Source: Ginglymostoma cirratum (Eukaryota). Taken from it: 64,000 nucleotides of DNA. The notes beneath the pieces were generated by a model that was given only the letters and a program-made list of their open reading frames with translations, was not told the origin of the DNA and made no database searches. Positions 14,663 to 62,642 of this stretch are shown here, one piece after another. A program made the translations under genes and the position numbers. Each line of letters begins with the position of its first letter. Position 1 is the first letter of the stretch. The stretch is from positions 20,003,462 through 20,067,461 of the forward strand of contig JAHRHZ010000078.1 in the NCBI GenBank assembly GCA_024137785.1. The letters run 5' to 3'.

Positions 14663-14832
14663 CATCAGCAGTTTAAGCCCTTTATTGAGAAAGCATAAAA
14701 AATCATGCTTCCACCAAGAAACCCAGAGAGGGTATCACCCATTATATAAAGTTTCTCCACTTCTGACTCTGACTTTATTAAATAAGCATAAGCCATCTTT
14801 TTGAATTGCACTAGGTTCATCACATTCTCCAA

Positions 14833-14950
14833 TCAGAGATAATAGGTGATTTTCTGATGAAGGGTCTAGGCCCGAAACATCAAGCTTTCCCGCTCCTATG
14901 ATGCTGTTTGGCCTGCTGTGTTCATCCAGCTCCACACCCTGTTATCTTTT
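14833..14950 (+). mobile_element. PLE pseudo-LTR mini-insertion with hammerhead core
   Basis: CTGATGA-AGGGTCTAGGCCC-GAAACATC at 14854-14881; 11-bp TSD ACATTCTCCAA (14822-14832 and 14951-14961). Confidence 0.8.
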
Positions 14951-15049
14951 ACATTCTCCAACCAGGTGTTTTAATTTAGCATGCAATTTAAAAATTCAGT
15001 TTCCAATCTAAAGCTTCTTTTAATCTTTATTTTTCAGTTCAATCGTAAA

Positions 15050-15430
15050 ACGAGATATCTGTAACACCTTAACGCATCAAAATATCAAAACACTTTACAG
15101 GAACATTATCAAACAAAAAAGTAACATTAAGCCACATAAGGAGTAAGATTAGCAAAGGTTTGTCCAGAAGTAGGTGTGACGGAGCATTTTGAAGGAAGAC
15201 TTGTGAGGTAGTATGGTGGAAAGGCTTAGTCAAAGCATTCTAAGAGCTTAGGTACCAGGCAGTTGAAGTCATGACCACCAATGGCGGTACACTGGATGTT
15301 AAGAATGCGCAAGAGGCCAGGCAGAATTGGAGGTGCCCAAAGATCTCAGAGAGTTGTAGAGTTGGAAGAGGCCACAGAACCAGGAATTACTGAGGAATTT
15401 GAAAAAAGAAGGGATGAGGAATTTTTAAAT
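15050..15430 (-). mobile_element. Old L2-like LINE/SINE 3' fragment
   Basis: CAAAACACTTTACAGGAACATTATCAAAC...GCCACATAAGGAG...TTCTAAGAGCTTAGGTACCAGGCAGTTGAAG resembles an inverted L2-type tail; a related remnant lies at about 58385-58570. Confidence 0.45.
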
Positions 15431-16127
15431 TTTTAAACATCAGATTTAAAAAAAACCTCTTGGAATTGCACTATACAGAGCTGGTTTCTCAGTCTGTATT
15501 TAATCACAGAAGAACTCATGAAAGGAGATGCTGTCTGGCAAGTAAAATATTCATGCCTTTACGGCAACAATTCTAATGTCATCAGCACCCCAGTGGTCTA
15601 TTGTGACTTACAGTGAATGGGCTGGACTATATGATAAATGTCACCAGTTGACTACATGGAGTCTCTGGTATTGTTATGGAAAACATTGCATTTTCCAACT
15701 CTTCACATTTTAAAGGTTACCTTTTCTCCAACTATTTCTGTGACAGCTTCTGATAATGAAACCCAGCATATATAAAGTTATGATTTGTGATAAAGTCCTA
15801 AATGAAGAAACTATAAGAAAAAAGTTTCACTGAATCTCTGAAGTCAACTATTTCTTTTATATTAAAATACACTGTCACTAATAATTCACAGGAAAACATT
15901 TGGTCAAGTTCAACATGTGAACAATTAATTTTTGACAATATCTCAAACATAGATCTTGTAAAGCCAAATGAAATCAAAATACTGCAGAGACTGGAAATCA
16001 GAAACAGACTGTAGAGACAGTTGTATCAGAGATAAAAGGTACTGCAGATGCTGGAGAATCCGAGATAACAAGCATGGGGCTGGATGAACACAGCAGGTCA
16101 AGCAGCATCATAGGAGCAGGAAAACTT

Positions 16128-16155
16128 GACGTTTCGGGCCTAAACCCTTCATCAG
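16128..16155 (-). ncRNA. Minimal type I hammerhead ribozyme core (PLE type)
   Basis: Minus strand CTGATGA-A-GGG-TTTAGG-CCC-GAAA-CG-TC; mirrored on the plus strand at 16181-16208 and 16619-16646. Stem I is weak. Confidence 0.65.
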
Positions 16156-59109: not shown

Positions 59110-59930
59110 CAAACAAGGTGTAGAGCTGGATGAACACAGCAGGCCAAGCAGCATCAGAGGAGCAGGAAAGCTGANNNNNNNNNNNNNNNNNNNNNNNNNN
59201 NNNNNNNNNNNNNNNNNNNNNNNNNNNNNNNNNNNNNNNNNNNNNNNNNNNNNNNNNNNNNNNNNNNNNNNNNNNNNNNNNNNNNNNNNNNNNNNNNNNN
59301 NNNNNNNNNNNNNNNNNNNNNNNNNNNNNNNNNNNNNNNNNNNNNNNNNNNNNNNNNNNNNNNNNNNNNNNNNNNNNNNNNNNNNNNNNNNNNNNNNNNN
59401 NNNNNNNNNNNNNNNNNNNNNNNNNNNNNNNNNNNNNNNNNNNNNNNNNNNNNNNNNNNNNNNNNNNNNNNNNNNNNNNNNNNNNNNNNNNNNNNNNNNN
59501 NNNNNNNNNNNNNNNNNNNNNNNNNNNNNNNNNNNNNNNNNNNNNNNNNNNNNNNNNNNNNNNNNNNNNNNNNNGGGGGGGGGGGGGGGGGGGGGGGGGA
59601 GTACGTTGTTTTGTAAAATCCAGCCGCATGCATTTGTATTGTTGTCCAAAATTAGAAAATGCCTGAACTTCCCAATTATGGGGATAGTAGGAACTGCAGA
59701 TGCTGGAGAATCTGAGATAACGAGGTGTAGAGCTGGATGAACACAGCAGGCCAAGCAGCATCAGAGGAGCAGGAAAGCTGATGTTTTGGGCCTAGACCCT
59801 TCTTCAGAAATGAAGGGTCTGAGCCCGAAACGTCAGCTTTCCTGCTCCTCTGATGCTGCTTGGCCTGCTGTGTTCATCCAGCTCTACACCTCGTTATCTC
59901 AGATTCTCCAGCATCTGCAGTTCCTACTAT
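59110..59930. mobile_element. Back-to-back inverted PLE pseudo-LTR pair spanning a gap
   Basis: Minus copies at 59114-59174 and 59684-59810; plus copy 59811-59930; degenerate TSD CCCCACAACTGGG (59097-59109) and CCCCATAATTGGG (59931-59943). Confidence 0.75.
59175..59574. other. Assembly gap (400 N)
   Basis: Run of N. Confidence 0.99.
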
Positions 59931-60043
59931 CCCCATAATTGGGAAGTTCAGGCATTTTCTAATTTTGGACAACAATACAAATGCATGCGGCTGGATTTTA
60001 CAAAACAACGTACTCCCCCCCCCCCCCCCCCCCCCCCCCCCCC
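59575..60043. repeat. Near-perfect long inverted repeat (poly-G...poly-C), probably part assembly artefact
   Basis: 59575-59780 is the reverse complement of about 59833-60043, including non-repeat flank sequence. Confidence 0.85.
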
Positions 60044-61974
60044 ACAAAAAGTTGTCAGTCTGTCAACCCAAAACTCATCTGCCCCACAGTAACGACAATC
60101 TGGTAATGGCTCAAATTGTCTCACATAAGGATTTCCATTCCCATCAGTGCTAGCGTGGGCGGTCAGAGGGAGGTTTAAGCTTTGGAGCGTTGGTGGGGTC
60201 ATCACTGCTGACCGCTGGGACCTTGTCCTTCAATGCGCTATAAGTGGCTACTTAAAAGGATCAACAGGCATAAGAGTGGGTAAAATACTTGGCAACTCCC
60301 CACCTGCGGTGAAATGGATAACAGGTGATGTGTGGGCATGGAGACCACCTGCTTCATTTTATGAGCCCCCCTGCCTTGAATATGCCAGTCCATGGAGTTG
60401 GTATGCAGATATGGGTCCTCTGTGAACCACAGTGCATCAGTGCCATTGCAGAGGGGTGATGGGCAAGTGAGTGTTAACTGGAGTCATAAATTAGAGACCT
60501 AAGCAATGTTTTAGGGACCGGTTTAAGTCCCACCATGGCAGATGGCAGAATTCGAATTCAATAATAATCTGGCACACCACTGTTGTGAAGCTAATCACCT
60601 GCCGTCAAGGGCAGCAGTTACACCACCTGCAAGTTCCTCTCCAAACCATCCTTACACTGGAAATGCTGTCGTCATTCCTTCAGTATTGCTGGGTCAAACT
60701 TCTAATTTACTTTCCTTAACAACATTGGCAGTCCACCTACACTGAGCAAACTGCTGTAATTTAAGAAGGCAGCTCCCCAATAGTGTTCATATTAGGTTTT
60801 TTAACCTTGTGCGTGAACCCGAGGTCAGTGTGTGTCAGCGTCTTCCAGAGCTGAAAGGCGAGACTGTGAATTGTGGCAGTACACAGATAGCCCTGTGCAA
60901 ATCCTCAAAGTGGCTGCACCCATAGTGCTCAGAGAGAACATTGCTCCCTCCCACCCTCTCATGGGCATCTACGGATGGGCAGTAAATGCTGGCTAAGACA
61001 GCGATACCGGTGTTCCATGATTGAAGCCTACATTCTTGACAATCCTCCAGCAACTCCCCACGATTAAAAAAATCCTGTAGACAAAACACTGTACCTCAAA
61101 CACCTCACTACTCAAGATGGATTGCCTAATGCTGGAAGCAGTCTATAAAAGTTGTGATAAATTGTACAGAACTATCATTTCCACATCAACAGAATCTTAA
61201 CATAATAATTTTAGTCTTCAGACAATGATTAACAAGCTCCCATTAGAGCCGCTTCTTTTTCTTGTATTAATTTAACATTAAGAATAAAAAGAGTATATTT
61301 TAATACACCAAAAGCAACTATATAAATGCAAGCTGTTATCAATATTTTACTATAACTGAGATATCAGTATATAATGACTATAGTAATGATTTTCCAGTTA
61401 ATACAAAATCTGCTCATCATTTCTGGATGGCCTTGCAGCAAGTATTTTGAAAGTCCTCTTCACACATTACCATCACGTATTAAGCCTGGAGAGCACATAT
61501 GGCAACATCAACACAAAAGCATCTCAAATGAAAGCCAAACCAAATAAAAATCACCATAAGATATACGCTGGAAATGAGTCATCTTCAGTTATCTGAGTCC
61601 TGAGGTCCAATTTTTAATCATTAATTTTCTCTGGATTGAACTTTTAAATTTCAGCGGTATTTTGTTTACCAAAATTTTACTGCATTGACTGCTGAGTGGT
61701 TCAAAAAGATAAGGAAAAGGTGCAACATCAAATGGAAATATGGAAATTCTAACCAACCGGTCCACAGCCTCACAGAGAGAGTGGGAGAAGACAATGGAGA
61801 CTTCCACAAGGGCATGGAGGAAGAGAATGGACACAGGTATCAAGGGTGGTCTGTGGCAGAGGGGCAACCTACACCTGCCATGTTGAAGGTCAATCATTTT
61901 AATTTGCTCCCCAAAAGTATTACATCAAAATAGACAGGAAGCTACTCTACCGTTTGATGAATTCAGCATCCTTC

Positions 61975-62316
61975 TGATCATTTCTGAAGGGTCTAGGCCC
62001 GAAATGTCAAGCTTTCCTGCTCCTATGATGCTGCTTGGCCTGCTGTGTTCATCCAGCTCCACACCTTGTTATCACGGATTCTCCAGCATCTGCAGTTCCT
62101 ATTATCTCTGATACAATTTTAACCCCACTGCGAAGCTTCTTCACAGGATGCCTACCCTGAAGAAGTTACCCTCCTCCCTCCGGACAATTTCTGATGAAGG
62201 GTCTAGGCCTGAAATGTCAAGCTTTCCTGCTCCTATGATGCTGCTTGGCCTGCTGTGTTCATCCAGCTCCACACCTTGTTATCTCGGTTTCTCCAGCATC
62301 TGCAGTTCCTATTATC
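61975..62316 (+). mobile_element. Tandem PLE pseudo-LTRs flanking the ORF start
   Basis: Direct repeats at about 61986-62108 and 62195-62318, separated by a spacer encoding MPTLKKLPSSLRT; 12-bp TSD TCAGCATCCTTC (61963-61974 and 62317-62328). Confidence 0.85.
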
Positions 62317-62642
62317 TCAGCATCCTTCCCGTTGACTGACTGTCAACTAAGACAGGAAATAAAATTTTGAAGGAAACCAGAAATTCGTAAGACTGAAAGC
62401 AGTGTCCTTTAGGAAAGCTACAGGATAGCTTTGCAAAATGGTGAACAGCCTGATGCCTCACCATCACCCAAAAACAGATACTGTTAAGATCTCTCTAAGA
62501 GACCACCTACTTGCTTCTGAAGAAAGGAATCCCAACAACACCAATGGAAAGACAACGGCTGGACAAGATTTCATCTTTTAAAATCTTACTGTAACAAAAC
62601 ACTAAAATGAACTCTCTTCAGACAATAATTAAAAGTAGAAGG

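Follow-up and report, generated by a model that had tools for sequence, protein, structure and literature searches.

We analysed 64,000 nucleotides of the shark Ginglymostoma cirratum (contig JAHRHZ010000078.1), referred to below, at full length, as the window. It is repeat-rich, with ~40% GC, and is interrupted by two gaps of 400 N. Scattered through it are 18 loci, intact or decayed, bearing the minimal type I hammerhead motif of Penelope-like elements (PLEs), which we sort into families A to D (Table 1). On balance, we read these inserts as the hammerhead-bearing end of at least four PLE families and as likely dead-end stumps made by the PLE reverse transcriptase (RT)-endonuclease, many of them likely reverse-transcribed from the front part of the RNA as far as its start. 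The class itself is already known: PLE ends with minimal hammerheads litter vertebrate genomes, and the copies described here are new shark members of it.

Hammerhead motifs in the window

A strict descriptor of the minimal type I hammerhead (CTGANGA, one extra base, a stem II of at least 4 bp and GAAA-NN-TH) matched 10 times, at 14854+, 16155-, 16181+, 16619+, 27900-, 35695-, 36025-, 44965-, 54612+ and 62191+, as against a mean of 0.03 and a maximum of 1 in 200 dinucleotide shuffles. A loose pattern gave 23 matches, compared with 6.6 in shuffled sequence. The match at 16619 is a 38-nt letter-for-letter copy of 16181 on the other side of a 400-N gap, and the two are probably one copy. A profile built from 14 window arms gave 25 matches, spread over 15 loci, while the reversed window yielded none; family C (19.9k and 44.9k) and family D (53.2-54.7k) bring the total to 18 loci. 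Family A contributes at least 6 insertions in 64 kb.

A preliminary description of this DNA had counted about 15 motif-bearing insertions and listed eight intact sites. The motif itself is borne out by the 10 strict cores; the number becomes 18, many of them decayed. All eight sites are among the strict matches (that given as 44934 is a few bases off), but "intact" is generous for three of them: the stem III palindrome is broken (CATC) at 14854 and 35998, and stem II is closed by G-T at 54612. Moreover, 54612 was wrongly taken for a mini-element; it is one end of an inverted PLE insertion of 1510 bp that carries coding sequence for GIY-YIG.

The assignment to minimal type I hammerheads is supported, with the core CUGANGA / GAAA / UH and a stem II in all 10 descriptor-passing cores. 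The Watson-Crick pair 15.2-16.2 is kept in 7/10 of these, and in family A stem II has 4-5 bp and stem I 3 bp. The stem II variants previously cited are present, but those at 46330, 57403 and 16734-16749 lie in decayed cores. On a MAFFT alignment of 13 copies, in which two family C rows were out of register, covariation was not significant (425/500 shuffles scored as high). With 16 copies anchored by hand, the 33.1k row being one base off, 87 of 96 cells were paired versus 72 when shuffled (0/20000), and seven hand-anchored subfamily representatives also gave 0/20000; such anchoring biases both results towards structure. Common substitutions in the family A core, as seen in contigs from relatives (described below), fall only at free position 7 (23-57%), in loop II and at CpG sites.

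In folding predictions the monomer does not adopt a hammerhead, stems I and II being absent (pair probabilities 0.0; -24.2 versus -12.8 kcal/mol). The statement that PLE hammerheads cleave efficiently as dimers was too strong. Cleavage is described as low even in dimers (PMC4209133) and as "very low" in a review (PMC6765202), and was found only with the PLE protein in PMC11167929. Of nine Xenopus dimers, one was cleaved and eight were left uncut (bioRxiv 10.64898/2026.07.22.740005).

No Rfam hammerhead was found in the whole window at the gathering threshold, and a search of 35500-36200 with E up to 10 returned three chance-level matches, none of them a hammerhead. We attribute this silence to the missing stem III and loop I. 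One chance-level match joined the family A tail region (35861-36013) to RMST_8, a conserved piece of a vertebrate long non-coding RNA, through a short word in common (E 7, far below the gathering score). The family A motif had no match among metagenome and viral contigs. With a broader motif, 4 matches came from metagenome contigs, 1 from a prokaryote genome and 0 from viral contigs; in a profile search none of them reached far past the motif, and we treat them as chance.

Layout and ends of the insertions

Target-site duplications (TSDs) of 12-15 bp bound 6 of the 18 loci; null-level matches of 7-10 bp were seen at 8 and none at 4. A strong TSD was defined by a score of 11 or more, which 1/145 random spans reached. 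The strongly bounded inserts measure 114, ~250 (with a gap inside), 196, 140, 342 and 1510 bp, and five of these six (114-342 bp) are free of open reading frames (ORFs). Integration as short TSD-bounded units that encode no RT, as first described, is supported.

Arms stand head-to-head at 16.0k, 28.9k, 29.5k and 53-54k, a short inverted end is present at 14.8k and 44.9k, and partial tandems in direct arrangement occur at 35.6k (period 330 nt) and 62.0k (period 210 nt). Family A arms have two alternative 3′ ends, either a short one or a tail end 32-40 nt beyond it. Both edges recur in contigs from three runs (X1, X2 and X23), each of which carries at most 0.24 of the words of a nearby stretch and so represents relatives rather than the same species; the listing from them covers 15 of their 134 joints and, for loose ends, 18 of 720 rows. 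Loose ends lie at 35602-35603, depth drops at ~35890 in all three runs, and sequence past the tail has 1-11% of tail depth. Paired arms at 16.0k and at 62.0k show 0/72 differences, whereas separate insertions differ at 1-12 positions. Such identity within an insertion fits two copies made from one template at insertion.

That the inverted structures are mostly assembly artefacts, with the short units being longer elements eroded after insertion, strikes us as very improbable. Family A inverted copies enclose or adjoin both gaps (16214-16613 and 59175-59574). The first gap has the same 38 nt on either side (the 16181/16619 duplicate), and beside the second stands a near-perfect palindrome at about 59575-60043 (224/228 identical, mismatches only near the axis) that takes in 108 nt of flank together with poly-G/poly-C. 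This palindrome is probably an assembly fold-back, and the flank included in 59575-60040 speaks for the artefact reading. Yet TSDs close gap-free inserts at 14.8k, 28.9k, 29.5k, 62.0k and 53-54k, the arms at 28.9k and 53-54k are diverged and asymmetric, and an opposite-strand joint appears in two independent runs of the relatives. A degenerate 12-bp repeat at ~59098-59109 / 59931-59942 could be the real TSD of a single insertion. At 16.0k an older family B inverted element (15967-16810) has a young family A insertion close to its middle, a PLE within a PLE.

Link to a Penelope reverse transcriptase

Both arms of family D match GIY-YIG (E 2.8e-4 and 2.4e-3, narrowly missing the Pfam cut-off), and there is no second GIY-YIG motif in the window. 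The best relatives of family D are the C-terminal part of shark RT proteins, at 63-69% identity; the RT core itself has been truncated away, and the proteins nearest to the GIY-YIG fragment are from Stegostoma and Chiloscyllium. By its coding sequence, family D is directly a PLE. It has the long tail in the left arm only, and a TATA box 47-49 nt before the core, at 54563-54572 with an inverted copy near 53332, is kept in both arms. Together with the head-to-head and tandem layouts, the tail and the TSDs, the GIY-YIG of family D supports the Penelope origin proposed for the whole set. The peptide that follows the family A tail is presumably a PLE ORF start. In the relatives' contigs 1-2 extra letters are found at 35809-35813, so that the window copy is frameshifted after the tail.

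Origin of the fixed 5′ edge

The 5′ edge could be read in nine family A arms, the duplicate at 16619 and the gap-cut 59.1k arm being left out. In six the first bases are ATTT(T), 4-5 nt ahead of the core; of the remaining three, one begins at about -26, one at about -77 and one inside the core. The same point stands out in the relatives: 9 of the 15 joints listed (of 134) are anchored on one side at 35698-35701, 3-6 nt ahead of the core, and vary on the other, and depth across 35698-35701 falls by 42-70% (X1, 0.93M to 0.48M; X2, 4.46M to 2.59M; X23, 19.4k to 5.9k) and then stays approximately flat for 35-60 nt. X23 consists of contigs that are only guessed to be RNA, and was not used as expression evidence. 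An initiator-like CCATTTC takes the A at 35699 as its +1, and that A lies 31 nt below a TATTTAT. In two of the six ATTT-starting arms a G stands directly before the A; this G could be a copied cap, though the signature is weak.

From these edges and motifs we suggest that transcription would start at the initiator-like A (-4/-5), served by the TATA-like box at -31 from it. Priming from the front tail would then copy back to the start of the RNA and give a cDNA of ~100-140 nt with a fixed 5′ edge; priming from the rear tail would give ordinary 5′-truncated copies retaining the upstream 3′ untranslated region (UTR). A second cDNA off the same template, joined inverted or in tandem, would finish the insertion. 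Stumps starting at the A do not include the TATA-like box and would not be re-transcribed on their own. A precedent exists in PAc, the Poseidon element of Anolis, whose protein binds near the junction of the pseudo-long terminal repeat (pLTR) and the ORF, starts reverse transcription internally at two tail ends and copies to the 5′ end of the RNA (PMC11167929). There, 5′-shortened templates gave shorter products and insertion did not need ribozyme cleavage; such internal initiation has so far been described in vitro only (PMC11167929).

More tentatively still, and with the balance of probability somewhat against it, we propose that the pLTR-only inserts, of which sharks have thousands, are run-off cDNAs made from the front tail of full-length mRNA. 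The shared 5′ edge would then record the transcription start and be an in vivo sign of internal initiation, which would also explain the birth of upstream pLTRs and of retrozyme-like tandems.

Several observations weigh against a start-site origin of the stumps or against their tie to a PLE. The proposed start site is drawn from motifs; 1.2% of positions fit the initiator pattern, and family D lacks a strict match to it. About 30-55% of depth runs on upstream of the core, so the run-off class can be no more than a portion of the population. At the 5′ edge loose ends are scarce next to those at the 3′ edge (15 contigs in X1; none among the X2 rows listed). Of the six ATTT-starting arms, two adjoin assembly gaps and a third (59.8k, minus) lies in the suspected fold-back. 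Contig depth does not measure copy number, and subfamilies with different 3′ UTRs could produce the step. The arms at 35.6k differ at 3/72 positions. Protein searches with family A translations gave no matches and hence no tie to an RT, and families A-C are linked to one through architecture and the presumed identity of the ORF start. Moreover, Penelope of Drosophila virilis has a TATA-less internal promoter (PMC2377424), and head-to-head palindromes have been ascribed to self-priming on antisense RNA, a different route (PMC3846280).

Alternatively, every stump could be 5′-truncated from a rear pLTR, the cluster of 5′ edges arising from RT stalling at a C-rich tract, from endonuclease cutting or microhomology joining at ATT, or from differing subfamily 3′ UTRs. 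Frequent 5′ truncation is the rule for PLEs (PMC8557442, PMC8969392), the anole PLE endonuclease prefers 5′-ATT-3′ (PMC11167929) and ATT sits at the breakpoint. The depth that continues into the 3′ UTR also speaks for it, as does the plain rear truncation of the family D arms and of both 35.6k units. Against it, depth shows a step and a plateau with no slope, the two units of the 62.0k tandem begin at the same base, and the TATA-like and initiator-like motifs are canonically spaced at that base. We consider rear truncation of all stumps unlikely, though by no means far-fetched. The suggestion in the preliminary description that these are simply 5′-truncated copies stands as to truncated PLEs, but random truncation is not quite right, as 6/9 arms start at one point before the core.

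Also to be weighed is a retrozyme-like non-autonomous lineage, in which short repeats would be transcribed, cut to unit length, circularised and re-inserted in trans by PLE proteins. Two direct-repeat inserts carry two hammerheads 330 and 210 nt apart, within the retrozyme size range (PMC7229834), and head-to-tail joints occur among those listed for the relatives (35698 to 35896/35900; 35700 to 35601). The 62.0k units have a private change in common, which could mean a short source copy, and PLE-derived retrozymes have been reported in vertebrates, including one chondrichthyan (bioRxiv 10.64898/2026.07.22.740005). A retrozyme unit would be expected to span from one cleavage site to the next and to reappear with an identical junction. 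However, the cleavage site is matched by 0/9 family A 5′ edges and by 0/15 of the joints listed (of 134). The two tandems differ in their internal junction and in period, and so have no shared unit; stem I has 3 bp, the monomer is predicted without stems I and II, both 62.0k cores are damaged, and the hammerheads are of the minimal PLE type and not the mostly canonical type of described retrozymes (PMC7229834). The 35.6k insert has two full cores, one with a broken palindrome, and its second unit is only partial; there are no multimeric arrays in the window. Loose ends at 35664-35667, at the cleavage site, were rejected as cleavage-defined ends, the letters continuing as variant hammerhead or body. 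With several unrelated PLE families sharing the same layouts in addition, the retrozyme-like class first put forward is not supported, and we regard it as improbable.

If stumps are run-off products as we favour for many of them, and the fixed 5′ edge is a transcription start, then stumps, pLTRs and PLE-derived retrozymes follow from one mechanism. The many young shark copies make PLE integration readable from junction statistics: where RT starts, where it stops and how the inverted arm arises. A practical point is that palindromes coincide with both assembly gaps in the window.

Neighbouring features and coordinates

The 35.6k tandem interrupts a LINE-like element (34917-35600 and 36050-36400) with an endonuclease/exonuclease/phosphatase remnant (E 0.027). 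An RVT_1 RT fragment of a non-PLE retroelement lies at 31596-32138 (E 2.3e-6), and many further LINE-like repeats recur through the window.

Table 1. Hammerhead-bearing PLE copies and associated features, in window coordinates.
Position	Strand	Feature	Details	TSD
1616..1709	+	Decayed family B fragment	Outside the span of the preliminary description	
14822..14965	+	Family A stump, 114 bp	In order: ~11 nt inverted tail, ATTTT, core 14854-14881, body, short 3′ end	15 bp, 14822-14836 and 14951-14965 (1 mismatch)
15967..16810		Decayed older family B inverted element	Stem II 16734-16749 read on minus strand	
16009..16725	both	Family A head-to-head, true length probably ~250 bp	Long-tailed minus arm 16023-16161; plus arm starting at 16177, its 3′ end short; encloses a 400-N gap	14 bp, 16009-16022 and 16712-16725
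19865..19954	+	Decayed family C copy	Core 19886	Null-level match only
26102..26230		Decayed inverted family B stump		Null-level match only
27035..27094	+	Decayed family B fragment		None found
27794..27905	-	Family A-related copy	Core 27900-27873; GGGTC/GACCC stem II, 1-bp stem I	None found
28853..29078		Family B head-to-head, 196 bp	Left arm with long tail; right arm begins within stem II	15 bp, 28853-28867 and 29064-29078
29389..29554		Decayed head-to-head, 140 bp		13 bp, 29389-29401 and 29542-29554
33070..33168	-	Decayed family B single arm		
35592..36057	-	Family A partial tandem, period 330 nt	Unit 1 starts ~26 nt before core 36025 and spans body, tail and ~100 nt further; unit 2 has ~77 nt of upstream sequence, core 35695 and short 3′ end	Weak, 7-10 bp
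35696..35730	-	Candidate promoter (putative function)	TATTTAT from 35730; initiator-like CCATTTC, A at 35699	
44890..45000 (edges approximate)	-	Family C copy	Inverted 3′ end of ~30 nt, followed by core 44965-44937 (stem II GGAG/CTCC, palindrome AGCT)	None found
46308..46454	+	Decayed family B single arm, ~127 bp	Long tail	Weak, 10 bp
53164..54699		Family D head-to-head 5′-truncated PLE, 1510 bp	C-terminal part of RT-GIY-YIG protein in each arm (53873-53442 minus; 53879-54432 plus); hammerhead 54612, damaged copy 53285	13 bp, 53164-53176 and 54687-54699
57395..57498	+	Decayed family B single arm	GAGTC/GACTC stem II	
59110..59931		Family A arms	Flank the second 400-N gap	
61963..62328	+	Family A partial tandem, period 210 nt, 342 bp	Both units start at ATTT; unit 1 core 3 nt short; unit 2 with CpG-type changes	12 bp, 61963-61974 and 62317-62328

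Comparison with known systems

The nearest hammerheads are the minimal type I ribozymes of metazoan PLEs (PMC4209133), which have in common with those of the window the core, the extra base before stem II, the G10.1-C11.1 pair and a palindromic 15.2-16.2. There too, copies are mostly single or on opposite strands, an arrangement ascribed to truncated PLEs already in 2014 (PMC4209133). Stems are shorter here, at 4-5 bp (stem II) and 3 bp (stem I) in family A against 7-8 and 4-5 bp in the Schistosoma families (PMC4209133), and we found no shark motif in the accessible part of that paper. Literature searches, with subscription journals and Repbase outside their coverage, returned no paper that deals with PLE stumps in sharks or that traces such stumps to start-site run-off, and among the papers listed for shark genus names together with the hammerhead ribozyme none used the ribozyme term.

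Like metazoan non-LTR retrozymes (PMC7229834; bioRxiv 10.64898/2026.07.22.740005), the inserts are short, non-coding, hammerhead-bearing and related to PLE pLTRs, and two of them carry two hammerheads 210-330 nt apart. They differ in that the window holds only partial dimers, with no shared unit, minimal hammerheads and ends off the cleavage site. Vertebrate non-LTR retrozymes derived from PLE pLTRs have already been reported (bioRxiv 10.64898/2026.07.22.740005) and therefore even a retrozyme reading would make no new class.

A typical PLE insertion has an inverted pLTR, a 31-bp tail and a TSD of 9-10 bp (PMC3846280; PMC8557442). Endonuclease-bearing (EN+) PLEs described in these papers resemble the present copies in their head-to-head arms, partial tandems, tail of 30-40 nt at one end and TSDs, and in the C-terminal GIY-YIG of family D. 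By contrast, most inserts here are of pLTR size and their 5′ edges gather at one base, and the TSDs are 12-15 bp long as opposed to 8-10 bp in rotifer PLE examples. The PAc element of Anolis (PMC11167929) differs from family A in that its ORF begins in stem II, where the same frame in family A stops after 14 codons. Its likeness lies in two 3′ ends that bound the tail, a hammerhead at the pLTR-ORF junction and no sign of ends that fall at the cleavage site.

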